A stretch of 64,000 nucleotides of DNA from a virus (lineage: Duplodnaviria; Caudoviricetes). The notes below the pieces were generated by a model, which was not told the origin of the DNA, did not search any database, and saw only the letters and a program-made list of their open reading frames with translations. Below, piece by piece: positions 6,198 through 25,119 of the stretch. Numbering within the stretch: the stretch's first letter is position 1; every line of letters starts with the position of its first letter. The translations under genes and the position numbers were made by a program. The DNA is taken from the IMG/VR virus record IMGVR_UViG_3300005582_000006, positions 1 to 64,000 of that record. One strand, 5' to 3'.

Positions 6198-6242
6198 TGA
6201 GGGTTGATTTTTGGACAGAATTTTATATGGGAGATTCATAAA

Positions 6243-7337: not shown

Positions 7338-7357
7338 TAGTTTGCAAACAAATATGT

Positions 7358-7390
7358 GGGCAGCAGGGAAACCTGTTGCCCCTTATTTTT
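7358..7390 (+). terminator. Rho-independent terminator
   Basis: Stem-loop GGGCAGCAGG-GAAA-CCTGTTGCCC followed by CTTATTTTT. Confidence 0.85.
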
Positions 7391-7401
7391 AGGAATATAG
7401 G

Positions 7402-8448: not shown

Positions 8449-8449
8449 A

Positions 8450-8815: not shown

Positions 8816-8817
8816 TT

Positions 8818-9690
8818 ATGAGTGTCACAAATAAGAAACAGTTTAAGGTGACTTTGGATAGTAAAGAAGTCGAACTTTGTGTTGTTCGACCTAATGTTAA
8901 GCAAAGGCAAGAAGGGCAAAAGATTTACAATAAGGCATTTAGAGATGCCGTTGAATCTGGTGCAATTCTTCGTGGTAAAGTCAATAATGTTATGCGAGAG
9001 CAGAATCTTTGGGATGATAACAAAGAAGCTGAATATCGTAAATTATTGGAAAAAATTAATGGGGCAGAAAGGAAGATTAAGTCTGGCGGTATTAAACTCA
9101 ATCAGGCTAAGGACTTAGCTCTTGAAATGAGGAAAGATCGTGCGGAACTTAGAGCTTTAACCTCTGAGCGATCATCCCTAGATAATAATACTGCTGAAGG
9201 TCAAGCAGATAATGCCCAATTCAATTACTGGGTTAGTTCATGTACGGTGTATTCAGAGACAGGGAAAACATATTTTAGTAATTATGAAGATTACTTAAAT
9301 AGAGATGACGATCCAGCAACTGGACAGGCAGCAGGAAGCCTTGCTATGTTGCTTTATAATCTTGATCCAGATTATGAAAAGAAACTACCTGAGAACCAGT
9401 TTTTAGCTAAATACAACTTTGTGGATGAAGAGTTGCATTTAGTTGATAAGACAGGGCGAAGGGTTGATTCTGAGGGTAGGCTAGTCAATAAGGATGGTAG
9501 GTATATTAGTGAGGCTGGTGAACTCATTGATATTCATGGTAATCGAGTTAACGAGGAAGGAGATTATGTTGTTGAATTCTCTCCGTTCCTTGATGACGAA
9601 GGTAAGCCAATCGAAGAAAAGATTGAGACTGTCAAAACAACGGCAGCACCAGAAATTGTTGTTGAAGCAGCTAAAGTTCCTGCTGAATAA
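8818..9690 (+). CDS. Putative tail assembly chaperone
   Basis: SD AGGAGG; acidic, coiled-coil; directly upstream of the TMP. Confidence 0.5.
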   Translation: MSVTNKKQFKVTLDSKEVELCVVRPNVKQRQEGQKIYNKAFRDAVESGAILRGKVNNVMREQNLWDDNKEAEYRKLLEKINGAERKIKSGGIKLNQAKDLALEMRKDRAELRALTSERSSLDNNTAEGQADNAQFNYWVSSCTVYSETGKTYFSNYEDYLNRDDDPATGQAAGSLAMLLYNLDPDYEKKLPENQFLAKYNFVDEELHLVDKTGRRVDSEGRLVNKDGRYISEAGELIDIHGNRVNEEGDYVVEFSPFLDDEGKPIEEKIETVKTTAAPEIVVEAAKVPAE

Positions 9691-9722
9691 GTCAAGAACT
9701 AAACGGACAGTATCGCATAGAT

Positions 9723-9782
9723 GGGCAGGGTTTAATCGTAGAAGTAACTACGCTTATGCTCTGCCCTTTTTTATTGAGGTAT
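9723..9782 (+). terminator. Long imperfect hairpin plus U-tract (terminator/attenuator) upstream of the TMP
   Basis: GGGCAGGGT..CGTAG-AAGTAA-CTACG..GCTCTGCCC followed by TTTTTT. Confidence 0.65.
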
Positions 9783-9786
9783 AAAA

Positions 9787-12700
9787 ATGGCTTTTAATCT
9801 GACTGCCAATTTAAATGTTGCTGTAAATAGTGGTGCTTTAAAAGCAGCAGCCAATCAAATAAATAGCACATTAGGAAGTGTGAACAGTTTAAAAATAGGA
9901 ACAAATTCTGCAACATTTGCTTCTCTTACTCCATTAAAAACTCAGCTTTCTGAGGTTACTAATTCCATAGAAAATTTTGGTAGGCAAGCTGGCTTTGCTG
10001 CTAAAAGATTTGCTGCATTTGCTGTGACTGCTGGTTCAATTATTACTTTCACTAACAACATTAGAGAAGCACTTTCTGCTGCTGTAGATTTTGATAGAGA
10101 GATGATTAGGCTAAGACAAGTCTCTGGAGATACGGCACAAGATGTTGCTGCTGTAGGTGAACAAATAACAGGTTTGTCTAAGGGTTTGGGTGTTTCAAGT
10201 AAAGATTTAGTTGGTGTAGCAGTAGTTTTAAAACAAGCTAACTTAACTCTTTCCGAAACTAAAGATGCTCTAGAGGCAATGGCACAAGCTGCTTTAGCAC
10301 CAAACTTTGATAACCTCAAAGATACGACTGAAGGTGCTATTGCTATCATGAAGCAGTTTAAGGTCGAGGCAAAGGATCTTGGTTCAGCTTTAGGTTCTGT
10401 TAATGCTGTAGCTGGCGAGTTTGCTGTTGAAGCATCAGATATTATTGAGGCGATTAGAAAGACAGGGGGTGCTTTTAAAGCTGCTGGTGGTAATTTAAAT
10501 GAGCTTATAGCCTTATTTACATCAGTACGACAAACGACAAGAGAAAGTGCCGAAAGTATTGGTACTGGCTTAAGAACTATATTTACACGAATACAAAGAA
10601 ATGATACGGCTAATGCCTTAAAAGAAATTGGTATAAATCTTAGGTATACCGCAGATGAAGCTAAAGCTTTAGGAGATGTTGGTTTAGAACAGCAATTTGT
10701 TGGTCCATACGAAGCTATTAAAAGGTTGTCCTCTGGACTTTCTGAACTAAGGTCAACAGATCCCCGATTTAGTGCCATTGTTGAGCAATTAGGTGGTTAT
10801 AGGCAGATCAGTAAGGTTATCCCACTTATTCAAGAATTTGCTACTGCACAGAAGGCATTAGGGGTAGCTCAAGCTGGTAGTGTGTCTTTGGCTGTTAATG
10901 CTGGTCAAGCACAGGATGCTCTTGCTGTAAAACTACAGAAGTTGAAGGAAAGCTTTTTTGAGGTTGGTAGAAGTATTGTTAATAGCCCTGGCTTTAGAAG
11001 TTTGGCTGATACATTCATTGGTGCTGCCACTTCGGTCTTGTCATTAATCAATTCACTTAAAGGTTTACTCCCATTATTTACTGCTCTCGCTGCTGTAAAA
11101 ATTGGTCAAAGTATTGGTTCTTTTGCCACAGGTTTTGTAAAAGGTGCTGGTGCAGATAATTCTTCTGCAAGAACAAATAAAAAAGCAGATGGCGGTTTTC
11201 TTAGGATGAGAACAGGGGGCATAGTGCCAGGGAGTGGAACTGGGGATAAAGTGCCAGCTTTGCTTGAGCCAGGTGAGTTGGTTGTGCCAAGGAGTCAAGT
11301 AAGAAGAACTAAATACTATAAAGCTGGTCCTGTAAAATTAGAAAAAGTAGGAGGTAAAAAAGATACATCGTCAATAAATACTCTGATTAATAATGATCTA
11401 GACAAAATGTTAAATAAAGAAGACACAATTTATATGGAAGTTGTAGAAAAAAAACAAAAATTATTAAGCGATGAACATAAAAAAGATATTTATTCTTCAT
11501 ATCGTTTGGAAGATTCAGATGCTGAATTGTATTCTGATCCAAATTTTCGACCAATAATGTACGCTTCTGACAACACAAAACCAAAAACAGTAATATCAAC
11601 AGCAGAAGCATTAGAGAAATATAAAACACAAAATCCAAAATTTAAAGAATTATCGATAGATTACTTAAAAAATTTAAAGAGAAAGATTGCTCCAGCAGAA
11701 GCTGCATGGGGGAAAAAATTTGAAAATATTACTCTTGAAAAATACAGTAGTACTATTCAAGCAGCTACAAGACCGACAATAAATGGCAAAATGGTTGCCG
11801 AAAGCACTTATCCAGTAGACACTGAAACAATAAGTCCTAGAAAAAGGAAATATGGAGACATTAAATTTAAAACTAGCAAAGAAGAAAATAATCATTTGTT
11901 AAGTAAACAATTAAGAGCAAAATTGTATTATAAAAAACCTGAAAAATTAGGCTTTAGTAAAAAACTAGGAGATAATGTTGATTTAGGATTATTTGAATAC
12001 TATGGTTCATATGATACAAAACAAAAAGGCAAAACCATACTAGGAGCAAAAGGAGATTTTTTACAATCATTACAAGATTTGCACAATCAAACAAAACCAA
12101 AACTTGCTCTAGGTGGACCAATCCCTCGCCAAAGATTCATGAATGGCAATAGTGTAGGACCAAAACCATTTCCACCAAATTTTTCCCCCGAAGAAATTTT
12201 AAATTTGGTCAAGGGCGTTATTCATACAGATGAAGTGATAAAGGGTGCATTTAGAGTTGCTGCAAAAATAAATCATCCAGACAAGAATCCTACTGCTAAA
12301 CCTAATGGCAACATGGAAAGAGTAAATGCTGCTCTTAGGACTTTATTAGATAGAAACATTCTTATAAGAGCAAGGGCTGAAGCTGGTCCAAAGACCACAG
12401 ATAATACTAGACGAAATACCTCACCACCACCGCCACCAAAAAGAAATGCTCAATCAGAAGATCAAATTTTTAGGGCTGTTTTTGGCGATGCTCCAACTAA
12501 AGACGAAGCAAGAAGTCAATGGAAAGGCACAAATCCAGAGACATTTACCAAACCAAATAGATTTGATAGTTTTGAAGCAGTTAGAAATGCTAGTCAATTT
12601 AGAGAAAAAGAAGAAGCAGCTAAAACAATGAACGCTTCTTCTGCATATAGTGACAGGCTAAGAAAAGCAAAAAGAGGATATGCTAATGGTGGAGATGTAG

Positions 12701-15700
12701 TTAGACAGAAATTTGCTAGTGGTAAGTTTGTTGCTAAAGATACAAAAGGAAATATTGTTCGTGATAGTGTTGATGGTGCAGACGAAGTTGAAATGGCTGC
12801 AAAGATTAGGCAGATGGGATACTTTGTTATATCTCTTGAGCTTGTTGCTGCCAAAAAAGCCTCACAACAAAAACTACAAGAAAGACAAGACAGAAGAGAT
12901 CAAGCAAAAGAAAGAGCGAAAGAACTTAGAAGATATTGGAATATGAATGAGACAGACACAGGTGACATTAATACATCTAGACCTCCAAAAAGAGGTAACA
13001 GTCTTGCAATAGAAGAATCAGAAAGACGAGAAGAAAATGCTAAAGGAATTGTTTTGTCTGGACCAAGTGGTGCTATTGCTGGAGGTATTACTGGTGCTGT
13101 TAGTGGTGCTCTTCTTGGTAATATTCCGGGGGCATTTATTGGTGGCACTTTAGGATTTGGTGCTGGAGCAGTTGGCGGTATGATGTATGACAAATCAAGA
13201 AAATCAGAAGATGAAAAAAATAAAGGTTTGGCTAGATTTTCTTATCAAGACGAACAGGGCAAAAAAGGAATTATTCCTGCTAGAGATAAAGAAGAAGCAA
13301 TAAGAAGATTGTCTTTTGATCGTATTACACCAACAAATATGCGGAGAGTTGCACCAGAAAGATCTTGGGGTGAATATCTCGAACAAAAAAGAAATGATAT
13401 TTTTGGTATAAAAAAAGCATCAATAGAAGAGACAAATAGGGAATCTCGTAGCCGTGAAAGAAAATTTAGTAAAAGCATAGGCAAAGGAGATGCCCCACCA
13501 ATAATGGTAAGGAAACCATCTAAAAAGACCAAAGAATCTAAAAAATATAGTGAAGATATATACAAGCCACTTCCTGCATTAGCATTAGATCCAACTTTAG
13601 GAAAATCAGTAGCAATCACAAAAGAAATGATGGAAGAAAGAAAAAAGGCTAGGGGTTTTGCTTCTGGTGGATTAGTACCAGGAACTGGCAATTCTGACAC
13701 AGTTCCAATGGACTTAGACGAAGGTTCGTTTGTAATTAAAAAGTCTTCAGTTAATAGCATAGGCATTGATAATTTAGCTAATGCTCACAAATTTGCATCT
13801 GGTGGTAAAGTTCCTGCATTACTCACGCCAGGTGAATATGTATATAGCCCTAGCGAAGCAAAGAAAATTGGTGCTAATAAACTTCATCAAATGAATAGTT
13901 TTGCAAAATTTAAAAAAGGTGGTGAAGTTGGTAATAGTATAGTTAGTGATACATTTTTAAATAGCCCAAACAACTTAAAGAAAATACTTTTAACATTAGT
14001 TGATCAAATAATGGAGTCAGATCCAGAAATATCAAAAAAAGATGCAAAAGCAGAAGCCACAAGAATTGTAAGTGAAATAAAAGTTCAAAATCAAACATCA
14101 AATCAAGCAATTGGAAATGTTGCTAGAGCAGATCAAGATATATCGGCAGAAAAATCAAATATTGGTGTTTTTAATAAAGAACTAAAGGGTTTTGGTAAAA
14201 CACTATCTACTTTAGGTAAAGAAGCAACTAGTTTAGCGGAAGCACTTCAGAAGAATACAGATGCAGCAGATGCTTCATATACTGCTGAATTAGAATTAAG
14301 GGCAAAGGGTACAGCAATAGTAGCTGCTAGAGATGCAAAAGTAGCAGCAGGACAAGATTTAACTAAAGAAAATACAAGGGTTGGATCTGCACAAACAAAA
14401 GTAAATGAATTAAAAGATAAAAAGAAAGACATGGAAGAGGCTAGACAAGCAAAAATAGATGCAGCAGATCAAAGAATTGCAGCAGCAGAACAAGCAAAAA
14501 TCACAAAAGAAGCTCAACCAGTAGATTTAACTCAAGAAAATAAAAGAGTTGTTTCAGCAAAACAAAAAGTCGATGATTTAAAGCAAAAAAAGAAGGACAT
14601 GCAAGAAGCGAAGCAAGCAAAAATTGATGCAGCGAGTCAAAGACTTGCAGAAGCAGAAGAAGCAAAAAGATTAAAATCTCAACAGCCAGTAAACTTAAAA
14701 AGTGAAACTGCAAAAGTTGGAAATATTACCGGAAGAATTTCTGTTCTAGAAGCAAGAAAAAAATCTAAATTAGATGCTGGTGAATCAGTTAGAGTTGTGA
14801 ATGCACAAATAGCAGAAGCAAAAAGACAAAGAGATGTATTGACAAAACAGATGGCAGATAAAACTGCTGCTGGACCTAACACAAAAAAAGAACAAGAAGA
14901 AATTGATAAAGCAAAAGAGGAATTAGCAAAAGCTAGTAAGCCATTAAAAACAAAAAACATAGACACAAAAATAATGAGAGCAGAAGATGCTCTTACGCAA
15001 GCTACTACTGCAAGAGACAACAAAGTTCCTAACACAAAAAAAGAACAGGAAGAAATCGATAAGGCGAAAGCAGAAAAATTGGAAGCTGAAAAACCATTAA
15101 AATCAAAAGCAATAGATGCAAAAATAACAAAAGCTGAAAGTGCTTTGACTACAGCAACAAACGCAAGAGATACCAAGGCAAGAACGGCAGTAGACACATC
15201 AAAAGAAGATGCACAAATTTTAAAGTTAAATCAAGATTATCAAAAACTTCTTGATGATAGAAATACAAATGCTCAAAATAGAGTGGCAATAGAAAATAGC
15301 ATTACTGCTGTTGGAACTAAACAATTAAATGTTCAAAATGAAATTTTAAAGACAGAACAAAACATAAAAGATGCAGAATCAAACATACAAAAAGCCGAAA
15401 CAGCAAAAGCAGCAGCAAAAGCATCAGGGGAAAAGGCCACTAGATCATTTCAAGTAAATGCAAAGGGTGAGATTGTAAATGAAAAAGGAAGGCCAATTGG
15501 ACAAACAAAGCCAATAACTACACCTGATTCAATAAAGCAAATTTCAAAACAAAGAGAAAAAGAATACGCTAAACAAAATGATGGTAAAGCCCCTAGAAAA
15601 AGCGAAAGAGAAGATATAAGAAGTGGAATAGTTAATGAATATAGAGTAGCAACAGAAAAACAACTTAGAGCAAAAGCACAAAAAGAAGGAAAACCTGTTA

Positions 15701-18700
15701 GCGAATTGCAAATCCAGTCTATGACTGATCAATACACTAAGCAGTTTGCTCAAGGAAAAAGAGGGGCAGTTTTTAATAAACAAGGTGAAGTAACAGGAGA
15801 TAAGTCTTTAGGATCAAAATTAATTAAAGGTGGAGATTATAAAGAAAGTGGCGATTTAACATTCCAAGGTAAGGTAAAAGATTTTGGAAGTAGAGCACTT
15901 TTTGGTTCAAAACGGACTGATTTTGAAGCTGGTTCAGAAGGAGAGAGACAGTTTAAACAAGATAGAGCATCTGGTTACGCCAATAGAATAACAACTGCTG
16001 CTGTTGGTGGATCTTTACTTGCTTCTGGAATGAGAGCAGAAGCACCAGAAGTTTCTTCTCTTGCAAAAGCAAATGAACAAGGAGTAGTTGTTGAAGATAA
16101 AGCACAGCAAGAAGCTTATAGGTCCACACTTCAATTTGCTGGTGCTATTGAAAAAGCTGGAACATATGCTGCTACTACTGCTACCGCTTTTTCGGCACTT
16201 GGGCCAGTAGGTACTCTTGTAGGCGGTGCTTTAGGTGCATTTGTTGGATTAATAAAAGGTTATGCTGATGGCACTAAAGAAGCAGAGGCACAAATAAGAG
16301 AAGTAAAGTTAGGTGCTGCACTAACAGGATTGCAAGGAACATTTGATAAATTAAATACTGGTTTAAGAACTTTTGATGATACTATTGCCGAATCAATTGC
16401 AGCAAATCAAAAAATTATTACTGAAGCAAACGCTGGAAAAGCATTCGTTGAAGCTGGTGGAGAGAAAAGTGGTTTTGATAGATTAATATCTGGAATTACT
16501 GGTGGCGGTTTTGGTGGATTTGATGTTAAAAAATTCAACGAATTAAATTCAAAAAGTCAAAAAGAAGCTGGTGCTGCACAAATAGTTCCACTTACGAACA
16601 TTTTAAATAAACAAGCCGAACAACTTGGTTCTAGTGCAGTAAGACAGGCTGGTGGAAATGCTGGAACATTAGACTATAAAGATTTTGCAGCATCATTAGA
16701 TACCAAATTAACTAGTGGCGGTGGTGGATTTAATAATGCACAAATACAAAAAATTGCTAATGCAAGAAATGTAAGCTTTGATGATGTTAAAAAAGAAATT
16801 GTAAAAGTAATGAAAGATTCTTTTAAAGCTGCACAATTAGAAAAAACTCAAAAAGAAGCAGTAACTGTAAATCAAAGATCTATAAATTCTATGGCATTAT
16901 TATCAGAAGCAGTTGTTGCTGCTGCTAATTCGGTAGAAAGTTTCTCTAATAGGTTAAGCACAAATGAGTCATTTTTTAGTGGCGGTATTGGATCAACAAA
17001 AGTAACTGGAATTTCTAATCAGTTTGATCAAAAATCAACTCCAGACTTTAATTCTTTTAATTCTGCCGTTTCTAAACTTTCTGATTCACTTGGAACTTAT
17101 GGCAATGAATTTAAGACTCAAGGAAATGCGATTAATGCAGCTTCACAAGCATTGCCTTCATTACTTGCTGGTGCAATAGAAGATCCTGTTGGTGGTCAAG
17201 ATATAGCCGTACAAATAGCTGCTGGTTTAAGAGAAGCTTTAAGTGCTCAAGGTATTAGTGGGGCTGGAGCAGATAGAGTCGTAAGTTCTGTTGCTGGAAA
17301 TGTATCTGGACAAGAATACACAAAGCTACTTGCTGAAGCTGGTGGCGATGTATCTAAAGTTGCAGAAAAACTACTTGGCAATATAAAAGACCCATTTTTA
17401 AATGCAGCTAAAGATATAAGTCAAAGATTAGAAAATGCAAGTAATCAATACATTAGTGGTTTAGAAAATTTAGCTCAAAGACAAAAACAAATTGGCGAAT
17501 CGTTTAAAAACTTAGAAAGTGCAAAACTACAGAGAGATAAGTTTACAGCAGAGACTGTTGCTACAAATGCTGGTTTGCCATCACAAGCAGGGAATTTGAT
17601 TTCAGTAGATAGACAAATGCAAGGCTTTAGAACAAATCAAGAAAGACTTACTGGAACCAAAGGAGCAGAAGCACAGGACTCCAGAGTAATTGGAGATAAC
17701 TTAAAAAGAACGCAAGAAAGAATTAGGGAATTAGAACCCAAAGTACAGAATGCTTCTGGTGCAGAAGGTGGTGGGGCTGCATTTAGAGGTGCAGCATCTG
17801 AGTTAGTTAAATTAAAATCAGAAGCTTCAAATTTGCAAGAGTCATTAAAGAATTTGGCAGATCAATCAAACAATCTTGCTATTTTGGAAGGCAAACTTGG
17901 TCAAGTAAGACAAGAAAGAGATAATGAAACTCAAAGAGGAAAAGAGTTTTTAACGGCAGATCCAAAAGAAAGACAAAAAATATTAAGAGATAGAGTTCAA
18001 GGACAAGGACTACTTAAACAAGCACAAGCTCAAGGTGGAAATGTAAGTAATTTTAGTTCTGGACAAAACAAAGCACTTTTTGCATTCTTAGATAGTTTTG
18101 GTCCAGTTGGAAAAGATATTGCAGACAACATTGTGCGTAATACTACTGGTTTAGGGAAAAAGAAACCAGAAGAAGATATGTTAGTTGGAAAATTAGCCAA
18201 AGTATATGACGAGCAAGTAAAAGCAAATCAAGAGTTAATTGGTAATCAAAGAAGTTTACAGACTGATTATTTTTCTCAGTTGACAAAACAAAATACTACA
18301 TTTTATTCAAACCTAGATAAATTTATTGCTGGCATGGAAAAAAGTCAAGTTCAAGATGAAAAAAATAGAGAAGTTGCAAAGTCTGCAAAAATAAAAGATG
18401 TTCAAGAAAAAAGTGGTTTTCTTAGAGAAGCTGGAGTAACTGATGAAAATCTAAAAGATGTTAATGCAAATAAAGGAAAAATATCAGAAGTAATAAAAGC
18501 AAGAGAAGCAGCAAAAGAAGAGGAAAAAAGATCTGTAAATATTAATGAGTCAATGAGAGAAGGTGATTTCGCACAATCTCTAGGAAGATCATTCACTAAA
18601 GATGCAAGAGAAGCAGATGCAGCAAAAGAAATTGGATCAAAAGGAGAAACATTAAATGACATACTTTCAAAAATAGGATTGACAGGAAAACAAAGCTCTC

Positions 18701-21700
18701 TAGTTCGTGAGCAAGCAACAATTGCTGTAACTCAAAATAAAGATTTAAACATAGAAGAAGCAATAAAAATAGCTATAAGACAAGTATCGGGTCAAACAGT
18801 TAATGATGCAGAAAAAAGAGTGAGTACAGCAGAAAAAGGTGCTGGAGCACTTGGCGTTAATATTGCCAATAAAGCACAAGAACAAGGAATAAGTGCAGAA
18901 AAGTTTGAATCTAGTCTTGCAGCAGTTACCGAATTAAATCAAGGTATTGGGGTAAAACTTACAACGGCAGCAAGTACTGCTACAGCAAATATTGATAGAT
19001 TATCTGCATCCATTAATAGTTTAGGGGCACAACAACAAGGTATTGCTCCAGTTAATGTAAATGCTAATCCTGCACAAGCAATTGGATTTGCAGTTGGTGG
19101 TCCAGCATTTTCCCCAAGAGGAACTGATACTGTTCCAGCAATGTTGACACCAGGAGAATTTGTAGTAAATAGAAGTGCAACACAACGAAATCTCCCACTG
19201 CTTCAATCTATAAATAGTGGAAAAACATCGTATTTAGCAGATGGTGGAGAGGTATTGGGAAAAAGAATAAAAGCATCAGAAGATGTAATGAAAATATGGG
19301 ATACCCCAGGATTAAAACAAGAAGAAAAAATAGCTTCAATTAGAAACATCATAAGCAATAAATATAATTCTCTTAAAGAGTCTTCTTTAACTAATGTTCC
19401 TAATGGAATAGAAGGCGAATCAAGAAAGTCTGCTGCTTCTGCAATATTGCAAGAGGTTATTTCATCTTTATCAATAGGTCAAATTCCAAAAAATGAAAGT
19501 GCTAAAAGGGTAATCGATAGCAATGGTGGAATTGAATCACTTCAAGATTTTGGAAATATTTTTGGTGATTTTAAAAGAAAAGGAGATACAGAAAATTCAC
19601 TAGGTTATAGAACAAAAGAAATAAATGATAATTATGAAAAAATTAAAAAAGAAATGTTAGATGAAAAGTTATTAGATCCAACAGAATCATATGAAAACTT
19701 TAAAAAAGATAATAAATATAATTATGAGTTATTATATAGCAAATATGATCCTGCAAACATAAGGACTGCCCTTAATAGTGTGATGATAGAAGCTGGTAGA
19801 GATGCAACAGTAAAAGAAAAAGTTGTTGCTGGATTACTTGGTGCTGGTTCTGCAATTATTGCTGCTCCTATCGCTATTGGTGGCGTAGCTCTTTCTGGTG
19901 CTGGAGCTTTAGGAGCGAGTATTAGTGGGGCTTCTGTTACTGCTGCTGGAGCTACAACTTATGGACTTGGAAAACTTATAATGTCAGAGTCCGCAGAAGA
20001 AAAAAAGAGAATGGATTTATTTAAATTGGATGCAGCAATAGCAGATCCAATAAACCAAGATAATACACATGGGTATTCTGCTGCTGTTTCAACAGGAGCA
20101 AATATTAAAAAGTTTGCAGATTTAGAAACATTGAATTCAAAAAAAGAATTTGCAGAAGGAATGAAAAGGATAAAAGAAGACTTTAATCATGTTTACAAAT
20201 ATGGAGTTTCTGGAAATGTTAAAACGCCAGGCTGGTGGGGAAAAACAAATGAAGAAAAAATGAATACTGATTTATTAAAAGAAACATGGTATTACAAAGG
20301 AACTAATGGTGGTGCTATAGATGTAGCAAAAGATGGCTATACATGGCCAGGTATTCAAAATTATAGTGGTGAAAAGGTTAATACTTTTATTCAGCCCCTT
20401 ATTGATAAGGCAAATGCTCCAGATCCATCAAACGCACAAAAAATAAAAAATTACTTAAAAAGAAAAAATATATCTGATAAAACATATTTAATTCCAGATG
20501 ATTTAAATGATTTAAATCAATTTATTGTAAATCCAGAATATTTAAAAAGTTTAAATGCTGCTGGCACTAAAGATATAGATGCTAATATAGATGCTAAAAT
20601 ACCACAATATATTGCAACAATAGCAAATTTAAAAGCACAAAAGAAAGACATTGTTTCAGAAAAGAAACAAGAAAATATAGTTGCCAACATTGCAAACGAA
20701 GAAGGCACAACGCCCATAGATACGCAGATAAGAATGGCAGAGAATGAGGTTCTTGCAGCAAGAGGGAATAAAGAATTAGAATCTAAGAAAAAAGCAGAAT
20801 TAGAAATATTAAAACTAAGAAGAACAAGCTATAACCAAACTGGATTAACATCTAATGAAAAGTTAAGAAATGCTTATGGTCAAAATAGACCAGAAATAGA
20901 TAAGAGCTATGTTGAATCTAAAGCTTATCTTACTCAAATAAAAGAAGGAACTGGAGAGAAGTTTGTCGCTACAGATATGGGCAAAGAAGACGAGCTTTTC
21001 TTAAAGAGACAGGGCGATGCAGGAAGATTAGCACAAATAGGTTTAAGAAGAGAAGTGCAAGCTAGTGCTATACTTGGCAAAATGGTAAAGCTAAAAGGTA
21101 TTTTTGCTAAAAATCAAGGCGAAGAATTAAACAAAAAAGAATTTGCTGAAATTGGTAAAGATCCAAATCAATTAATACCTTTAGGCTTAAAAGAATACAA
21201 TAATTTATACAGTGGACAAAAAGGAAGTTTAGCAAAAGAAGACTTTGATAATCCTAAACTTATACTTCCATTCCAAAAAGAAATTGTTGGATCTTTCTTT
21301 AAACAACAAGCAAGCACAAGATCTTTAGCAATAAGTGGTAAGGGTCTTCTTGACTTTATTGATCAATATTCAAACATAAAAGACACTAAGGGTTTTGTTG
21401 AAGCAAAGGTAAAACAAGCTGGACCAGATGCTATACCTTTAGTTGTAAGGGCGATAGAAGAAGGAAAAATAAATGCGTTGAGCGTTCTTAATGCAGCAGC
21501 AGCAAATGTTGGTGGTATAAGCAGAAAGAGCTTAGAAGGTGCTATTGGAAGAAATAAAGACTTTAATCTATTAGATAAGCTCTCCGAAAAACAAGAAGGA
21601 AAAGCACAAAAAATTGTTAAACCATTCTCTGGAATTGATTTTATAGAAGGTGAAGATGGTGCTTATGCAACTATAAAGGCAGTAAGTGGAAAAGGTCAAG

Positions 21701-24700
21701 TTTCGATGTCTGCCAATAATACCGCATTAAGAATAGCTGCTCCTTACTTGCCAAAATCAATTTATAAACAAGATATTCTTGCTGGAGAAGCATATAACAA
21801 TGATGGATTAAAAAAATTGGCTGGTGATAGACCAACATTGGGAAGTCCTAATAGCTCTTTCACATTTCCAGCAGATGGGCCAAGTCTTTTTACTACAGAA
21901 GATTTTTTAAATGCTGTAAGTAATTCACAGGGGTACGCAACTATTTCATCAAAAGCAGTAGTTGTAGAAGAAGATGTTGAAGGTAAGAAACAAAGAAAGA
22001 TTGATTATAAAAGAAATTTAGATGTTGCAAATATTGAAAATTCTAAAACTAGAGAGGCGATGAAAAATCGTTTAAAGCGTATAAATGACATAGAGGGAAT
22101 TAATAAACCGAATCAACCAGAAGAAAATAAAAATGTAGTTAAAGGAGAACCCAATGAATTTCAAGCTGCAATTATAAAAGAAAAAAATGAACAGAGTGCT
22201 CTTGCAGCTAGACTACCTAGAGCAACCAAAGAGCAACAATTATTTGAAGGCCAATACGGAGAACTAAGTGTTGAAAGTCGATTAAATAGGGGTGAAATAA
22301 CTAGAGAAGAAGCAGCAGCACAAATAGAACGACAAAGACAAGCTAGAAAAATGTCATCTGGTGGAATAGTAAACTATCTTTCATCTGGTGGTGTTCCTAG
22401 TCATAGTCCTAATCCTGATCCTTCGTTCTTTAAGCCTAAAGGTACAGATACAGTACCAGCTATGCTTACGCCAGGTGAGTTTGTAATAAATGCCTCTGCT
22501 ACTGCTAAACATGGCGATTTATTAAGTGCTATAAATAGTGGTAAAGATGTTGGATATTCTGCTACTGGTGGAATAATTTATTTAGAAGATGGTGGAGAAG
22601 CAAGAAAAAAAGCATTTTATGAAAAAATGAATAAGCGAAAAAATGACGAAGAAAAATTAAGATATTTAGTTGATGATAAAGATAAAGATAAAAATACCTA
22701 CATGCAAGACAGAAAAGATGATTTAGAATCTACTGCTAATAGGGCAACTCAAACTTTTTCTCGTAGGCAGAACCAATTTATACAAGATGAAGACAAGAGC
22801 AATAATGCTGGAACAGAAATGGTTTTTAATGCTATGGGGATGACTGGACTTGCAAAAGCAGGAATATCTGCAATTTCAAAATTTGCAATGAGTCCATCAC
22901 TTAACGCTGCTGGTCAGGGAGCAAAAAATATTGGGAAAAACTATTTTAAATACGAAGCACAAAATCAAGTGCAAAACACAGGTATAGATATTTTTAAGTC
23001 AAATGCGGAAAAATTACTTAGATATGCAAGCGGTGGATTAGTAAGTTATTTATATGATGGTGGATACTTAAAAAGAAGAGCAAACTTAGCTTCTTATAGT
23101 GGCAGTGAAAATGAATATGTTACAGATCAAGAAGAAGTTGGTAAACAAAATACGGCAAATATAACCAATAGAATAGCAGCAAAGAATCAAGCTGAAAACA
23201 ATGCATTTCAAATGTTTTCTAACATTAGATTTAATGACGGAACTGGTAGTCTTTTTGACAATACACAATCTGGATTTTCTACTGGATCTGGTGGTGTTTC
23301 TGCTCAACAAGCACTATCTTTTCAAGATCCAACTAAGCCTGGTGGAGAAGGCATAACATCAGCAGCAATGGGTATGATTGGAGATGTTCAATCCAGAATG
23401 AAGGGTAATAAAAATCCATATGGAAATATTTCTGTTACTGGTGCAGAATTAAACGAATTAAAATCTGCAAAAGCAAATGAACCAGAAATACAGAAGAGGT
23501 ATGATGAATATAAAAAGTTTATAGAAGAACAAAAAAAACAACAAGAAGAAGAATCTGGTAGTACATATGCAAGTTTGGGGGGATTGATTTATGCTCAAGG
23601 TGGACTTTATCTTCCTCGTAATAATTATAGACCATATGTTTCAATTCCAGATAGCAGTTACACAGGTAGCGGAGGTTACTTTGGTGATAATGAATCTATT
23701 AATAATGGTGGGGGTTATTTTGGTGAAAGTGGAGATAAAATAGAAAGACAACAAAAACTTTACGAAATTCAAAAGAAAAAACAAAAAAGTCCTCGTTACC
23801 TACAAGCAGAACAATATCAACAACAACAATTTCAACTTAGAAATCAAGCATATCAATCACAACAACGAAAATCGCAAAATCCTAAACGACAACAACAGCC
23901 AGAACAATGGCAAATAAATTGGCAACAACAGCAACAAGCAAGTGGATATAAAAATCCATATGCAGCATTGCAATCAAAACCAATGTTTCCAGAACAGAGA
24001 CAACAACAATCAGAAAATTTTCAAAATCAAAGGGCATATCAAGCAAAGCAAGAAATGTATGGCGGTCCTAGTGCCCAACCAGTATTTCAAGCAAGTAACT
24101 ATGCAGGAAGTTTCTTTAATCAAGTTCCACAGCAACAACAAGTAGCACAAGACCCAAAACGAAAACAATTAAGTTTGTTTAGAATGAATCTAGGGTCATA
24201 TAGTTCTGGTGGTAATGTAGATACTATTCCAGCTATGTTAACTCCTGGTGAGTTTGTAGTAAATAAACAAGCATCATCTAAAAATTATTCTTTATTACAT
24301 GCAATCAATAGTGGCAAAGAAGTTGCTAGATTTAAAGATGGTGGTAGCGTTGGAAATATTCGTGGAAGAAAAGTAGACCCAATAGAATCTGGAATAAGTC
24401 TATTAGCTGGTAAGCTATCTGGAGTTGGAAATAAATTTATTGAGAGTGGAGATTCATTCAAGACTGGAGCAAATGCTAATAGGGAAGGATCACAAAACAT
24501 ATTGGCTTCTTCATCAAAGTTTAATTCTGGAGTTGGAAGTTTTGCTGATTCTGCTACTAAAATATCAAAAAGAAAGGGCTATAATTCTGGTGGTCTGGTA
24601 AACTATTTTGCAGATGGTGGATTCACACCAAGAGGCACAGACACTGTTCCCGCTATGCTGACACCAGGAGAGTTTGTGGTAAATAGACAATCAACATCTA

Positions 24701-25119
24701 AAAATTTAAATTTATTAAAAAATATAAATGGAAATGCTAGTTATATGTCTAATGGTGGAGTTATGTATGCTAGAAGGGGTGCTTTTGTTGGAAATTCATC
24801 GCAAGACTCATCTCCAGCAATAGATATGACTTCAGTTACAGAATTAGCTAATGCAATAAGTACATTAGGAACTACATTTCTCAAACCTTTTGGTGAACAA
24901 GTAGATGCATTTAAAAATTATGCTGAAGCTTTACAAACACAAATCAATAAAATACCAACAGTAGTAAGAATAGAAGTCATGGGTAGTTTAAATGCTGCTT
25001 TAAATATTGACTTTAATCCAGATGGCGTATATACAGCGGTAACACAAGCAACGCAAGAATTACAAGGGTTTATAATTGCAGAAATAAATAAACAACTTGG
25101 AAATGATATGAGAGCATAA
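9787..25119 (+). CDS. Giant tail tape measure protein (5110 aa) with embedded cargo domains
   Basis: The N-terminal ~460 aa match the TP901-family TMP core (AVDFDREM, NAVAGEFAVEASDI, ESAESIGTGLRTIFTRI). Long Ala/Lys/Gln coiled coils; canonical position after the tube and chaperone genes. Confidence 0.9.
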   Translation: MAFNLTANLNVAVNSGALKAAANQINSTLGSVNSLKIGTNSATFASLTPLKTQLSEVTNSIENFGRQAGFAAKRFAAFAVTAGSIITFTNNIREALSAAVDFDREMIRLRQVSGDTAQDVAAVGEQITGLSKGLGVSSKDLVGVAVVLKQANLTLSETKDALEAMAQAALAPNFDNLKDTTEGAIAIMKQFKVEAKDLGSALGSVNAVAGEFAVEASDIIEAIRKTGGAFKAAGGNLNELIALFTSVRQTTRESAESIGTGLRTIFTRIQRNDTANALKEIGINLRYTADEAKALGDVGLEQQFVGPYEAIKRLSSGLSELRSTDPRFSAIVEQLGGYRQISKVIPLIQEFATAQKALGVAQAGSVSLAVNAGQAQDALAVKLQKLKESFFEVGRSIVNSPGFRSLADTFIGAATSVLSLINSLKGLLPLFTALAAVKIGQSIGSFATGFVKGAGADNSSARTNKKADGGFLRMRTGGIVPGSGTGDKVPALLEPGELVVPRSQVRRTKYYKAGPVKLEKVGGKKDTSSINTLINNDLDKMLNKEDTIYMEVVEKKQKLLSDEHKKDIYSSYRLEDSDAELYSDPNFRPIMYASDNTKPKTVISTAEALEKYKTQNPKFKELSIDYLKNLKRKIAPAEAAWGKKFENITLEKYSSTIQAATRPTINGKMVAESTYPVDTETISPRKRKYGDIKFKTSKEENNHLLSKQLRAKLYYKKPEKLGFSKKLGDNVDLGLFEYYGSYDTKQKGKTILGAKGDFLQSLQDLHNQTKPKLALGGPIPRQRFMNGNSVGPKPFPPNFSPEEILNLVKGVIHTDEVIKGAFRVAAKINHPDKNPTAKPNGNMERVNAALRTLLDRNILIRARAEAGPKTTDNTRRNTSPPPPPKRNAQSEDQIFRAVFGDAPTKDEARSQWKGTNPETFTKPNRFDSFEAVRNASQFREKEEAAKTMNASSAYSDRLRKAKRGYANGGDVVRQKFASGKFVAKDTKGNIVRDSVDGADEVEMAAKIRQMGYFVISLELVAAKKASQQKLQERQDRRDQAKERAKELRRYWNMNETDTGDINTSRPPKRGNSLAIEESERREENAKGIVLSGPSGAIAGGITGAVSGALLGNIPGAFIGGTLGFGAGAVGGMMYDKSRKSEDEKNKGLARFSYQDEQGKKGIIPARDKEEAIRRLSFDRITPTNMRRVAPERSWGEYLEQKRNDIFGIKKASIEETNRESRSRERKFSKSIGKGDAPPIMVRKPSKKTKESKKYSEDIYKPLPALALDPTLGKSVAITKEMMEERKKARGFASGGLVPGTGNSDTVPMDLDEGSFVIKKSSVNSIGIDNLANAHKFASGGKVPALLTPGEYVYSPSEAKKIGANKLHQMNSFAKFKKGGEVGNSIVSDTFLNSPNNLKKILLTLVDQIMESDPEISKKDAKAEATRIVSEIKVQNQTSNQAIGNVARADQDISAEKSNIGVFNKELKGFGKTLSTLGKEATSLAEALQKNTDAADASYTAELELRAKGTAIVAARDAKVAAGQDLTKENTRVGSAQTKVNELKDKKKDMEEARQAKIDAADQRIAAAEQAKITKEAQPVDLTQENKRVVSAKQKVDDLKQKKKDMQEAKQAKIDAASQRLAEAEEAKRLKSQQPVNLKSETAKVGNITGRISVLEARKKSKLDAGESVRVVNAQIAEAKRQRDVLTKQMADKTAAGPNTKKEQEEIDKAKEELAKASKPLKTKNIDTKIMRAEDALTQATTARDNKVPNTKKEQEEIDKAKAEKLEAEKPLKSKAIDAKITKAESALTTATNARDTKARTAVDTSKEDAQILKLNQDYQKLLDDRNTNAQNRVAIENSITAVGTKQLNVQNEILKTEQNIKDAESNIQKAETAKAAAKASGEKATRSFQVNAKGEIVNEKGRPIGQTKPITTPDSIKQISKQREKEYAKQNDGKAPRKSEREDIRSGIVNEYRVATEKQLRAKAQKEGKPVSELQIQSMTDQYTKQFAQGKRGAVFNKQGEVTGDKSLGSKLIKGGDYKESGDLTFQGKVKDFGSRALFGSKRTDFEAGSEGERQFKQDRASGYANRITTAAVGGSLLASGMRAEAPEVSSLAKANEQGVVVEDKAQQEAYRSTLQFAGAIEKAGTYAATTATAFSALGPVGTLVGGALGAFVGLIKGYADGTKEAEAQIREVKLGAALTGLQGTFDKLNTGLRTFDDTIAESIAANQKIITEANAGKAFVEAGGEKSGFDRLISGITGGGFGGFDVKKFNELNSKSQKEAGAAQIVPLTNILNKQAEQLGSSAVRQAGGNAGTLDYKDFAASLDTKLTSGGGGFNNAQIQKIANARNVSFDDVKKEIVKVMKDSFKAAQLEKTQKEAVTVNQRSINSMALLSEAVVAAANSVESFSNRLSTNESFFSGGIGSTKVTGISNQFDQKSTPDFNSFNSAVSKLSDSLGTYGNEFKTQGNAINAASQALPSLLAGAIEDPVGGQDIAVQIAAGLREALSAQGISGAGADRVVSSVAGNVSGQEYTKLLAEAGGDVSKVAEKLLGNIKDPFLNAAKDISQRLENASNQYISGLENLAQRQKQIGESFKNLESAKLQRDKFTAETVATNAGLPSQAGNLISVDRQMQGFRTNQERLTGTKGAEAQDSRVIGDNLKRTQERIRELEPKVQNASGAEGGGAAFRGAASELVKLKSEASNLQESLKNLADQSNNLAILEGKLGQVRQERDNETQRGKEFLTADPKERQKILRDRVQGQGLLKQAQAQGGNVSNFSSGQNKALFAFLDSFGPVGKDIADNIVRNTTGLGKKKPEEDMLVGKLAKVYDEQVKANQELIGNQRSLQTDYFSQLTKQNTTFYSNLDKFIAGMEKSQVQDEKNREVAKSAKIKDVQEKSGFLREAGVTDENLKDVNANKGKISEVIKAREAAKEEEKRSVNINESMREGDFAQSLGRSFTKDAREADAAKEIGSKGETLNDILSKIGLTGKQSSLVREQATIAVTQNKDLNIEEAIKIAIRQVSGQTVNDAEKRVSTAEKGAGALGVNIANKAQEQGISAEKFESSLAAVTELNQGIGVKLTTAASTATANIDRLSASINSLGAQQQGIAPVNVNANPAQAIGFAVGGPAFSPRGTDTVPAMLTPGEFVVNRSATQRNLPLLQSINSGKTSYLADGGEVLGKRIKASEDVMKIWDTPGLKQEEKIASIRNIISNKYNSLKESSLTNVPNGIEGESRKSAASAILQEVISSLSIGQIPKNESAKRVIDSNGGIESLQDFGNIFGDFKRKGDTENSLGYRTKEINDNYEKIKKEMLDEKLLDPTESYENFKKDNKYNYELLYSKYDPANIRTALNSVMIEAGRDATVKEKVVAGLLGAGSAIIAAPIAIGGVALSGAGALGASISGASVTAAGATTYGLGKLIMSESAEEKKRMDLFKLDAAIADPINQDNTHGYSAAVSTGANIKKFADLETLNSKKEFAEGMKRIKEDFNHVYKYGVSGNVKTPGWWGKTNEEKMNTDLLKETWYYKGTNGGAIDVAKDGYTWPGIQNYSGEKVNTFIQPLIDKANAPDPSNAQKIKNYLKRKNISDKTYLIPDDLNDLNQFIVNPEYLKSLNAAGTKDIDANIDAKIPQYIATIANLKAQKKDIVSEKKQENIVANIANEEGTTPIDTQIRMAENEVLAARGNKELESKKKAELEILKLRRTSYNQTGLTSNEKLRNAYGQNRPEIDKSYVESKAYLTQIKEGTGEKFVATDMGKEDELFLKRQGDAGRLAQIGLRREVQASAILGKMVKLKGIFAKNQGEELNKKEFAEIGKDPNQLIPLGLKEYNNLYSGQKGSLAKEDFDNPKLILPFQKEIVGSFFKQQASTRSLAISGKGLLDFIDQYSNIKDTKGFVEAKVKQAGPDAIPLVVRAIEEGKINALSVLNAAAANVGGISRKSLEGAIGRNKDFNLLDKLSEKQEGKAQKIVKPFSGIDFIEGEDGAYATIKAVSGKGQVSMSANNTALRIAAPYLPKSIYKQDILAGEAYNNDGLKKLAGDRPTLGSPNSSFTFPADGPSLFTTEDFLNAVSNSQGYATISSKAVVVEEDVEGKKQRKIDYKRNLDVANIENSKTREAMKNRLKRINDIEGINKPNQPEENKNVVKGEPNEFQAAIIKEKNEQSALAARLPRATKEQQLFEGQYGELSVESRLNRGEITREEAAAQIERQRQARKMSSGGIVNYLSSGGVPSHSPNPDPSFFKPKGTDTVPAMLTPGEFVINASATAKHGDLLSAINSGKDVGYSATGGIIYLEDGGEARKKAFYEKMNKRKNDEEKLRYLVDDKDKDKNTYMQDRKDDLESTANRATQTFSRRQNQFIQDEDKSNNAGTEMVFNAMGMTGLAKAGISAISKFAMSPSLNAAGQGAKNIGKNYFKYEAQNQVQNTGIDIFKSNAEKLLRYASGGLVSYLYDGGYLKRRANLASYSGSENEYVTDQEEVGKQNTANITNRIAAKNQAENNAFQMFSNIRFNDGTGSLFDNTQSGFSTGSGGVSAQQALSFQDPTKPGGEGITSAAMGMIGDVQSRMKGNKNPYGNISVTGAELNELKSAKANEPEIQKRYDEYKKFIEEQKKQQEEESGSTYASLGGLIYAQGGLYLPRNNYRPYVSIPDSSYTGSGGYFGDNESINNGGGYFGESGDKIERQQKLYEIQKKKQKSPRYLQAEQYQQQQFQLRNQAYQSQQRKSQNPKRQQQPEQWQINWQQQQQASGYKNPYAALQSKPMFPEQRQQQSENFQNQRAYQAKQEMYGGPSAQPVFQASNYAGSFFNQVPQQQQVAQDPKRKQLSLFRMNLGSYSSGGNVDTIPAMLTPGEFVVNKQASSKNYSLLHAINSGKEVARFKDGGSVGNIRGRKVDPIESGISLLAGKLSGVGNKFIESGDSFKTGANANREGSQNILASSSKFNSGVGSFADSATKISKRKGYNSGGLVNYFADGGFTPRGTDTVPAMLTPGEFVVNRQSTSKNLNLLKNINGNASYMSNGGVMYARRGAFVGNSSQDSSPAIDMTSVTELANAISTLGTTFLKPFGEQVDAFKNYAEALQTQINKIPTVVRIEVMGSLNAALNIDFNPDGVYTAVTQATQELQGFIIAEINKQLGNDMRA
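14356..15170 (+). repeat. Tandem coding duplications in the TMP coiled coil (168-nt and 153-nt periods)
   Basis: DLTKENTRV, DLTQENKRV and NLKSETAKV start at 14356, 14524 and 14692; PNTKKEQEEIDKAK starts at 14875 and 15028. Confidence 0.8.

Follow-up and report, generated by a model that had tools for sequence, protein, structure and literature searches.

A real-looking J-domain within a giant tape measure protein from an uncultured phage

In the 64,000-nt window studied here (i.e. the whole stretch of DNA that was analysed), residues ~798-865 of a 5,110-aa phage protein look like a genuine but divergent minimal J-domain (type III or class C), as judged from profile searches and predicted structure. 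The ORF that encodes it is, by its sequence similarities, the tail tape measure protein (TMP) of an uncultured phage. This suggests that the phage brings its own handle for a host chaperone within a virion protein. The reading that we favour, tentatively and with somewhat less than even confidence, is that the J-domain brings host DnaK to its own TMP, most likely at the membrane after ejection. The features discussed below are collected in Table 1.

Table 1. Features of the TMP gene (nucleotide positions in the window, residues of the TMP)
Feature	Position	Strand	Residues	Basis or remark
Giant TMP gene	9787..25119	+	5,110 aa	One uninterrupted ORF; PF10145; tblastn to annotated TMPs
PhageMin_Tail (PF10145) domain	10159..10797	+	125-337	E 2.3e-23, 83.6 bits (cut-off 33.2)
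Hydrophobic cluster 1, putatively membrane-inserting	10993..11139	+	403-451	Kyte-Doolittle, 19-aa window >=1.2
Orphan module A, hypervariable among relatives	11374..12096	+	~530-770	Upstream of the J cassette; BLASTP comparison
Linker 1, KLALGGPIPRQRF	12103..12138	+	773-784	5' cassette boundary; read from sequence
Predicted J-domain (helix I 801-804, II 815-829, III 842-865)	12178..12381	+	~798-865	PF00226, profile, AF2, Foldseek, ESM Atlas
HPD tripeptide	12274..12282	+	830-832	Frame 1 translation; helix II-III loop of the model
Proline-rich spacer and conserved ~45-aa cassette tail	12382..12672	+	866-962	Kept in relatives; disordered in AF2 up to the model end
Linker 2, RGYANGGDVVRQKF	12673..12714	+	963-976	3' cassette boundary; read from sequence
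Glycine-zipper / hydrophobic cluster 2	13045..13185	+	1087-1133	Hydropathy scan; PF13488 Gly-zipper_Omp E 3e-4, below cut-off

The tape measure protein and its surroundings

The large ORF is TMP-like in that it matched 39 phage records in tblastn searches; among the matches listed, the products were annotated as tape measure protein, YomI/transglycosylase or hypothetical protein, or carried no annotation. The annotated TMPs among them belong to SPbeta-like, Rhodococcus and Geobacillus phages and are 22-30% identical to the window protein, whose N-terminal domain is 27-30% identical to that of the YomI-type TMPs. The initial annotation had placed the J-domain within a tape measure protein, and the PF10145 match together with these alignments bears this out.

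The gene lies within a co-oriented block of large ORFs. The 10 ORFs neighbouring it gave no matches in PHROGs, and no structural Pfam family was matched by its neighbours. Among the upstream ORFs no tail assembly chaperone family was recognisable, and the canonical slippery heptamer of a G/GT-type frameshift signal was not found in the overlap upstream of the gene. No tRNA genes were found in the window.

The TMP contains long helical or hydrophobic segments of the kind that fits a role in the tail lumen and in the membrane. The hydropathy scan showed four hydrophobic or glycine-zipper clusters (aa 403-451, 1087-1133, 2131-2160 and 3342-3385), and aa ~1500-2000 form a charged stretch rich in Ala, Lys and Glu. 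The J-domain is situated in the N-terminal sixth of the protein, and in the phages with siphovirus tails that have been studied the N-terminal end of the TMP is head-proximal, i.e. the last part to leave the tail.

Profile and structural evidence for the J-domain

The proposal of a J-domain in the TMP is backed by HMM, profile, language-model and fold evidence. The peptide on which it was based, with HPD at 12274-12282, is indeed read in frame 1 of the plus strand. The domain had originally been drawn from 12178 to 12362; its start can be kept, but helix III of the predicted structure extends it to about nt 12381. Histidine makes up only 0.23% of the ORF, so that 0.019 HPD tripeptides are expected by chance and one is observed; the J-domain match therefore exceeds chance. 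Helix II reads ..IKGAFRVAAKI.., i.e. it presents a basic face (K, R, K) and an aromatic residue (F), the two elements of J-domain helix II that contact Hsp70.

The initial annotation had suggested a scan with PF00226 as a check, and its outcome is favourable in one respect and short of the mark in another. PF00226 was the only Pfam family matched by a 117-aa piece carrying the module (E 7e-6, 26.5 bits), and it was also found in a six-frame scan of the whole 76-kb record (27.2 bits, E 3.3e-7). The scores of the window module (26.3-27.2 bits) are, however, just below the gathering cut-off of 27.8 bits. The near-identical allele in the sister contigs G002 and L008 scores above it (29.5 and 28.9 bits, respectively), and that in sister contig G001 reaches 27.6 bits, or 28.1 bits with its in-frame neighbours. 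DnaJ is the best Pfam family for all four allele types found among related phages (28.9, 18.0, 14.4 and 16.9 bits), three of which are sub-threshold. The allele with HSD in place of HPD, at only 14.4 bits, was not recovered at E<=0.01 in its own record.

A profile built from 10 related modules matched 35 PDB sequences at E<=0.01 (best E 4e-5). J-domain proteins account for as many as 33 of these, among them E. coli DnaJ, Tim14 (E 1.3e-3) and polyomavirus T antigens (E 1.1e-3 and 2.7e-3), the remaining two being designed repeat proteins. Run against 5.8e9 sequences, the same profile matched a PF00226-annotated protein (E 8e-5). In the ESM Atlas, 22 of the 30 neighbours of the module fall in DnaJ-annotated sets.

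The AF2 model has helices at model residues 37-40, 51-65 and 78-101, with pLDDT values of 86-92 in helices II and III. HPD (model residues 66-68) directly follows helix II and helix III begins 9 residues on; a separate helix IV is not resolved from helix III. In the PDB, each of the 13 top-ranked Foldseek matches is a J-domain structure, with a probability of 0.98-1.00 and a TM on the target of mostly 0.4-0.7, and Tim14 (PDB 2guz) is among the five best. Among the best BFVD matches, those that carry a name are T antigens and viral proteins of the DnaJ or J-domain type; the viral look-alikes listed there are 72-698 aa long and none is named a TMP. The Foldseek E-values are weak in both databases (>=0.02, none <=0.001), as is expected for a domain of only about 65 aa.

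The J module as a cassette in related tape measure proteins

The window protein was compared with 12 related giant TMPs of 4,503-6,532 aa. The J module is present in 11 of them, with HPD in six and HSD in five. It occurs in at least four allele types, and HPD is found in three of the four. Pfam scans of the whole TMPs from four relatives returned nothing beyond PF10145. In this uncultured lineage, with genomes of ~148 kb to judge by the contigs of relatives, the giant TMPs thus look like carriers of cassettes.

Residue conservation was read from an alignment of 10 modules with overall identities down to 33%. The H and D of the tripeptide are invariant in all 10, with P replaced by S in three; equally invariant are the F of helix II, the N, M, N and L positions of helix III, and the GG and RQRFM of linker 1. 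The two bracketing linkers named in the initial annotation both exist, and the limits of homology coincide with them. The BLASTP alignments with eight of the 12 relatives begin at linker 1 (q770-776), and homology to P0009, a relative lacking the module, resumes at q958, near linker 2. In another relative, P0013, identity to the window TMP is 92-95% on both sides and 66% in the module, which is of another allele; near-identical flanks around a divergent module point to exchange. As judged from these alignments, the J module is an exchangeable cassette with a GG..RQ(R/K)F linker at either edge, situated between the first two hydrophobic clusters (aa 403-451 and 1087-1133) in a variable, basic stretch with 17-20% K+R.

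Four metagenome loci with DNA copies of the cassette were recovered, two of them among the contigs already in the comparison. Over 87 codons the near-identical copies show 0-5 synonymous and 5-8 non-synonymous changes, too few for a useful within-allele dN/dS; none of these changes is inside the 47-aa core, which had served as the exact search string. No relatives of the cassette were found in 185,579 species genomes (i.e. no prophage relatives), nor were sequence relatives found among 50,697 phage records. The nearest DnaE of an isolated phage is at most 33% identical.

It is conspicuous that the HSD allele is almost unchanged among TMPs that are otherwise only 43-51% identical. J-like domains with HSD are regarded as unable to stimulate Hsp70 (PMC11349236), and the preservation of this allele therefore indicates that at least some members of the family may employ the module without activating DnaK in the canonical way. 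The module could also be a J-like relic or adaptor, i.e. a kept J fold that would serve as an Hsp70-independent spacer or docking domain in the tail or at the membrane, the HPD of the window being ancestral baggage. HSD in five of 11 otherwise strongly conserved cassettes would agree with this, as would the sub-threshold Pfam scores of most allele types and the HSD J-like Pam18, described as working independently of Hsp70 and tolerating either tripeptide (PMC11349236). Against it speak the invariance of H, D and the helix II and III positions down to 33% identity, the window allele, which is the most canonical (28.9-29.5 bits in sister contigs), and the retention of HPD in three of the four allele types. 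We consider it unlikely that the module is such a relic.

In P0009, whose TMP is 4,822 aa long, the slot is filled by an unrelated module with an HExxH-type motif, seen by eye and without a Pfam match. The J-domain is therefore dispensable for building the tail.

Module A, which precedes the cassette, has no BLASTP segment in common with 11 of the 12 relatives. A broad alignment with P0017 failed when module A was compared alone, and no homologues of 132-422 aa were found. An assignment to YqaJ was discarded, since the Pfam match (E 0.005) is below the cut-off; Pfam likewise did not confirm a PD-(D/E)xK-like pattern seen by eye in module A, nor a staphylococcal-nuclease-like one in the P0007 and L004 relatives. 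The single-sequence AF2 model of module A was unusable (pLDDT 46.7). Polyvalent proteins of phages and conjugative elements are giant proteins that unite several recognisable effector or enzymatic domains and are delivered together with the DNA; in the window TMP no domains other than the J-domain and that of the TMP family could be recognised, and neither module A nor the modules of the relatives gave significant family matches.

A variable region with exchange of alleles is typical of host-interaction modules, and together with the HExxH-type module in the same slot of P0009 it would fit a delivered effector. The virion-borne J-domain would then, like Rki of phage RB43, hijack or disarm host DnaK at the start of infection without chaperoning the TMP; DnaK would be diverted from its clients, e.g. 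from the control of the heat-shock sigma factor, or from chaperone-dependent defence sensing. This appears improbable to us. A phage tail holds only few TMP copies, which would face an abundant chaperone, and no neighbouring module can be assigned to an effector family. The polyvalent-protein paper of Iyer et al. 2017 (PMC5512222), whose main text contains no mention of DnaJ, J domain or tape measure, also counts against an effector. On the other side, the J-domain protein Rki is described as interfering with DnaK and stabilising sigma-32 (PMC3486835), and an antiphage sensor dependent on DnaJ is reported (PMC12169576).

Possible roles of the J-domain and known systems

To our knowledge, J-domains have only one known partner class, cytoplasmic Hsp70, and a J-domain in a TMP is therefore a concrete, testable handle. 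Neither Hsp70 (PF00012) nor a second J-domain was found in four related, incomplete phage records, so any partner must be that of the host. In a complex prediction with J module residues 28-105, E. coli DnaK 1-605 and ATP, the runs gave 0.38, 0.07 and 0.13 against a mark of 0.32; obtained with a stand-in for the DnaK of the real host and without controls, these values speak neither for nor against binding.

In our favoured reading, DnaK recruitment at entry, the TMP would be ejected from the tail upon infection and would insert in the cytoplasmic membrane with its hydrophobic clusters, whereby the small, all-helical J-domain would become exposed on the cytoplasmic face. Its HPD loop would trigger ATP hydrolysis in host DnaK, which would clamp neighbouring unfolded TMP segments, retain the unfolded remainder of the TMP, draw it out of the tail channel and aid the folding of its modules. 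Membrane-tethered J-proteins at translocons, i.e. Pam18/Tim14 with mtHsp70 and Sec63 with BiP, would be the precedent; Pam18 J-proteins are described as stimulating mtHsp70 in translocation (bioRxiv 10.1101/2025.08.25.671915; PMC11349236). We infer the binding of DnaK, its timing after ejection and the topology alike. The initial annotation had supposed that host DnaK is recruited to refold ejected cargo or to ratchet the TMP or the DNA into the cytoplasm. The position of the cassette between hydrophobic clusters, the lack of a phage Hsp70 in the four records and the minimal, type III character of the J-domain would fit such recruitment, whereas HSD in five of 11 modules and the lack of the module in P0009 cut against a role at entry. 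The place of the J-domain in the N-terminal sixth, presumably the part that leaves the tail last, also speaks against our favoured reading.

A bolder version would make the TMP its own import motor: it would form a membrane channel, and the tethered J-domain would turn host DnaK into an ATP-driven ratchet that pulls the thousands of still unfolded TMP residues, and the leading end of the genome behind them, inward. We regard this as a long shot, and any 'DNA ratchet' could only be indirect, because DnaK acts on polypeptides. If true, the virus would deliver a counterpart of the mitochondrial PAM and ER Sec63-BiP motors, and the cassette alleles would be tuned to different host DnaKs.

Sequence cannot separate a role at entry from one in the synthesis or assembly of the TMP; the latter is equally simple and nearly as likely. 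As a built-in co-chaperone, the J-domain would emerge after about 865 of the 5,110 residues, fold, and load host DnaK onto the nascent chain in the producing cell; DnaK would stay until relieved by tail assembly chaperones and tube subunits, and the J-domain would then be passive in the virion. Taken as a whole this scenario is possible but doubtful. It needs no assumption about translocation, DnaK and the nascent TMP both being cytoplasmic, and the J-domain precedes three of the four hydrophobic clusters of an exceptionally long TMP for which no tail assembly chaperone family was recognisable upstream. Furthermore, recruitment of host Hsp70 in folding and assembly is predicted for DnaJ cochaperones of jumbo phages (PMC7824862). 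An assembly function would be expected to reside in the conserved core, yet the cassette is in the most variable part of the TMP, at least four alleles are swapped between otherwise near-identical TMPs, HSD occurs in five of the 11 cassettes, and P0009 does without the cassette though its TMP is just as long.

The finding bears on how ejected TMPs and other virion proteins cross the envelope, on where they end up and on the source of energy and folding help. If the J-domain is active, part of the TMP must meet DnaK, at entry or during its own synthesis, and the natural HPD, HSD and absent variants are ready-made controls. Should the module be inactive, domain shuffling would have produced no more than a modest curiosity.

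Literature text searches found no earlier description of a TMP with an internal J-domain, subscription journals and supplementary files being outside their reach. Several known systems are nevertheless comparable in part. Sec63 and E. coli DjlA are membrane-tethered type III J-proteins. Pam18/Tim14 (PDB 2guz) resembles the TMP module as a minimal J-domain near membrane-type hydrophobic segments, with a proposed placement of Hsp70 at the exit of a channel for an unfolded chain. The translocon J-proteins differ in that there is no homology beyond the J-domain and that the carrier here is a viral tail protein which would build its own channel. The J-domains of T antigens act in cis on what neighbouring domains bind. 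The large and small T antigens of polyomaviruses (PDB 1gh6, 2pf4, 1faf), matched here by both profile and fold, likewise show a viral J-domain in a multidomain protein, but they are non-structural proteins of eukaryotic viruses and their J-domain is N-terminal.

The TMP of mycobacteriophage TM4 reportedly has an embedded peptidoglycan-hydrolase motif. Like SPbeta YomI (annotated as transglycosylase/TMP), it is a TMP with a non-measuring module used at entry; the target of these modules is the cell wall, which they reach from the periplasmic side, whereas the only known partner of a J-domain is cytoplasmic. Pam18 of Trypanosoma brucei is described as having a natural change of HPD to HSD in a conserved J fold (PMC11349236), as in five of the 11 cassettes; it differs in being a mitochondrial protein of a eukaryote that has been put to a new use in mtDNA replication, and the window allele keeps HPD. 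A phage system that comes close is Rki (gene 057w) of the T4-like phage RB43, described as the first functional phage-encoded J-domain protein (PMC3486835). Both are phage J-domains that act, or would act, on host DnaK without a phage Hsp70 and have no G/F or zinc-finger regions; Rki is, however, a small, free-standing, early and cytoplasmic protein, whereas the TMP J-domain sits as a cassette inside a late 5,110-aa virion protein. The TMP module would add a structural form, carried in the virion, to the phage J-domain proteins known so far, which like Rki are small, free-standing and early.

The tape measure gene and its J-domain

The window covers the opening 64 kb of an IMG/VR record that is 76,246 bp long and has a CheckV completeness of about 51%. 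Positions 9787-25119 (+) form a single uninterrupted ORF of 5,110 codons, and PF10145, which covers phage minor tail / tape measure proteins, matches its residues 125-337 with 83.6 bits (E 2.3e-23; cut-off 33.2). Proteins in 39 phage records align to its first 500 residues with 22-30% identity, and SPbeta YomI and the tape measure proteins (TMPs) of Rhodococcus and Geobacillus phages are among the matches listed. The label "tape measure protein" used in the initial annotation is therefore sound. About 17 ORFs surround the gene (window 1-9784 and 25132-35467, +); none has a structural Pfam match, and PHROGs gave no match for the 10 flanking ORFs tried; current profile libraries do not recognise the tail/baseplate genes of this phage lineage.

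The same annotation had placed a J-domain within the TMP, bracketed by linkers. The peptide that it quoted is in frame, with the HPD tripeptide at residues 830-832 (nt 12274-12282), and both linkers are present, at aa 773-784 and 963-976. PF00226 was the sole Pfam family matched by a 117-aa piece (E 7e-6, 26.5 bits), and a six-frame scan of the whole record gave 27.2 bits (E 3.3e-7). Both scores lie slightly below the gathering score of 27.8 bits, which the near-identical allele of a sister contig, a related phage record, exceeds (28.9-29.5 bits).

A profile of 10 related J modules (A1) matched 35 distinct PDB sequences at E<=0.01. J-domain proteins account for 33, including E. coli DnaJ, human DNAJA1/B1, yeast Ydj1, Sis1, Tim14 and the large and small T antigens; the remaining two are designed proteins of 31-residue repeats, with a score that is the sum of twelve insignificant repeats. 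A1 had a single match (E 8e-5) among 5.8 billion proteins between 220 and 2,000 aa long, and this protein, of 851 aa, contains two PF00226 domains. The AlphaFold2 model built on A1 (mean pLDDT 72; helices 86-92) has, in model numbering, a short helix, helix II (51-65), the HPD in the next loop (66-68) and a long helix III (78-101), with the flanking linkers disordered. The best 13 Foldseek matches in the PDB are all J-domain structures (probability 0.98-1.00; TM on target mostly 0.4-0.7), and the best named matches in BFVD comprise viral DnaJ or J-domain proteins as well as T antigens; the E-values are weak (at least 0.02), as is usual for domains of about 65 residues. Among 30 ESM-Atlas neighbours, 22 belong to sets annotated as DnaJ (score 0.93-0.94). 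Since His is so rare in the ORF (0.23% of residues), only 0.019 HPD tripeptides are expected there by chance. The Pfam, profile, structure, language-model and chance tests are independent and agree, and the segment is very probably a J-domain in fold and homology, as had been proposed.

Variation of the cassette among relatives

With TMP residues 701-1000 as query, an exhaustive phmmer search of 1.84 billion cluster representatives yielded only 4 proteins (4,503-4,941 aa) and a word-indexed search 11 relatives (4,822-6,532 aa), which together make 12 distinct proteins. Pairwise BLASTP with the window protein delineates three zones: conservation (72-95%) extends over the first ~520 residues, the stretch ~530-770 is common to essentially none of the 12, and in 8 of them homology restarts precisely where linker 1 lies, at q770-776. 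One relative, P0017, was rejected as a sharer of the middle zone, its single broad alignment collapsing when the module was compared alone.

The J cassette, i.e. the J-domain and its flanks between the two linkers, is present in 11 of the 12 relatives; the tripeptide is HPD in six and HSD in five. In the remaining one, P0009, an unrelated module of ~390 aa lies between the same two linkers (residues ~690-1090), and homology to the window protein restarts at q958. An H-E-x-x-x-H-type motif was read by eye in this module, for which Pfam gave no match at E<=0.1. The allele types are HPDKNP (window, L002, L003), HPDRNP (P0006, P0010, P0011, L009), HHPDRGG (P0015, P0016, P0017, L011) and HHSDRGG (P0007, P0008, P0012, P0013, P0014), where L numbers denote cassette-bearing sequences. 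DnaJ is the best Pfam family for all four (28.9, 18.0, 14.4 and 16.9 bits, the 14.4 being that of the HSD allele), and only the window's type approaches or exceeds the PF00226 cut-off. Several positions do not vary across the alleles in A1, which are down to 33% identical: GG and RQRFM in the linker, an E-I pair in helix I, Phe in helix II, H and D in the tripeptide and N-M..N.....L in helix III.

To judge from the sequences, cassette alleles are swapped through recombination at the linkers, because P0013 and the window protein share 92-95% identity on either side of the cassette, yet the cassette of P0013 is 66% identical and carries the HSD allele. This variability, like the absence of the cassette from P0009, fits poorly with a role in chaperoning the giant TMP, during translation or assembly, inside the producing cell. 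We consider that role somewhat less likely than the reading favoured below; it needs no translocation and suits the N-proximal position of the J-domain. The HSD alleles are a warning that there may be more to it than canonical DnaK activation. Their existence would agree with a J-like module acting without Hsp70, and T. brucei Pam18, described in PMC11349236 as Hsp70-independent with a conserved HSD, offers a precedent; however, the window's allele retains HPD and is the most canonical of the four, and such a module seems improbable here. The HPD, HSD and module-absent variants are natural controls.

The TMP contains at least six copies (see table) of a ~35-45-aa motif, [FY]-x-x-GG ... G-[ST]-D-[TK]-[VI]-P-A-x-L-[TE]-P-G-E-x-V, after which L-L-x-x-I-N-x-G-K often comes; all relatives have the motif too. 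These motifs appear to mark module boundaries and may be processing sites, tube contacts or recombination junctions; the cassette's short GG..RQ(R/K)F linkers look like truncated copies. A pattern of ~40 aa (F-x-[AY]-x-D-x-x-G ... acidic helix ... hydrophobic strand) is found twice downstream of the cassette and may resemble a repeat at the N-terminus of platform proteins from type II secretion / type IV pilus systems. Near the C-terminal part lies a Gln/Asn-rich low-complexity stretch with Q runs (Q+N 23% in block 4501-4750), which is swapped for different sequence in several relatives.

Coordinates of features in the window
Feature	Window position	Strand	TMP residues	Remarks
TMP recurrent motif	11185-11289		~467-501	
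TMP recurrent motif	13660-13851		1292-1355	
TMP recurrent motif	19126-19250		3114-3155	
TMP recurrent motif	22447-22570		4221-4262	
TMP recurrent motif	about 24200-24300		~4805-4840	
TMP recurrent motif	24640-24760		4952-4992	
~40-aa pattern, two copies	12715-12830 and ~13250-13370		~977-1015 and ~1155-1195	flank glycine-zipper cluster
Gln/Asn-rich stretch	~23700-24160		~4640-4790	
DnaE part, PHP and NTPase domains	50048-51970	minus		
DnaQ-like 3'-5' exonuclease ORF	49146-49784			between DnaE halves; PF00929, E 7e-16
DnaE part, finger, HhH, OB domains	47516-49141	minus		
Sugar-handling genes	40075-47112	minus		
Sugar-handling genes	2221-4020	+		
RecA-like protein, 673 aa	58283-60304	minus		RecA match only residues 388-617

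Phage gene content and a possible mechanism

The phage has genes of its own for DnaE, DnaB, a primase and a RecA-like protein, and no close isolated relative of it was found. The gene for DnaE (DNA polymerase III alpha) is split into two ORFs (window 47516-51970, minus strand), and the ~380-aa N-terminal extension of the RecA-like protein has no family match. Sugar-handling genes are unusually many for a phage (at least five glycosyltransferases of the GT1 and GT2 families and an NTP-transferase), a gene set that suggests glycosylation of DNA, virion or host surface.

Neither an Hsp70 (PF00012) nor a second J-domain was found in four related phage records, these being 51-78% complete. What is observed is a J-domain, its TMP context and no phage Hsp70 in the related records; a working TMP J-domain would therefore need host DnaK. 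To our knowledge, docking on Hsp70 and triggering hydrolysis is the only activity of J-domains. They dock ATP-bound Hsp70 via the HPD loop and helix II and trigger hydrolysis, whereupon Hsp70 locks a nearby unfolded segment (PMC3486835 and PMC11349236). The TMP J-domain lacks a G/F region, a zinc finger and a client-binding domain and so would act in cis on its neighbour, i.e. the TMP itself.

TMPs occupy the lumen of the tail and are driven out before the DNA. Published titles tie TMPs to genome injection, a protein of the inner membrane and a chaperone in the periplasm. Hydrophobic or glycine-zipper clusters are found at aa 403-451, 1087-1133, 2131-2160 and 3342-3385, and the cassette sits between the first two, in a stretch with 17-20% Lys+Arg. 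The reading that we favour, tentatively and by analogy, is that these clusters would insert in the membrane, so that a tethered J-domain would be displayed on the cytoplasmic side and could recruit host DnaK, which would hold, pull and fold the chain as it comes out. We infer here the DnaK binding, the topology and the timing. An Rki-like delivered effector, diverting DnaK or a chaperone-guarded defence, is a doubtful alternative, as TMP copy number is low and no effector domain was identified among the neighbouring modules.

Comparison with known systems

The logic of a membrane-tethered J-domain recruiting DnaK to the emerging TMP is the same as that of Pam18/Tim14 with mtHsp70; PAM18 stimulates mtHSP70 in translocation, according to a preprint (bioRxiv 10.1101/2025.08.25.671915). 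TMPs with embedded cell-wall hydrolase motifs are already known from a published title and record annotations. Full-text searches, limited to main texts outside subscription journals, and checks of the likeliest papers gave no report of a J-domain within a TMP, and 'DnaJ', 'J domain' and 'tape measure' are all absent from the main text of a polyvalent-protein survey (PMC5512222). Among the BFVD matches listed, the viral structural look-alikes are 72-698 aa long, without any being named a TMP. The fusion would surprise specialists in phage entry or chaperones.

Other phage J-proteins have been described: Rki of RB43 (PMC3486835), DnaJ cochaperones that occur sporadically in jumbo phages (PMC7824862), J-proteins in 'Moraphages' (PMC12619734) and a DnaJ-like protein in a cluster C mycobacteriophage. 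All of these are free-standing, whereas here the J-domain lies inside a TMP. What is new is thus the carrier of a known domain with a known partner, and possibly the place and time of its action.
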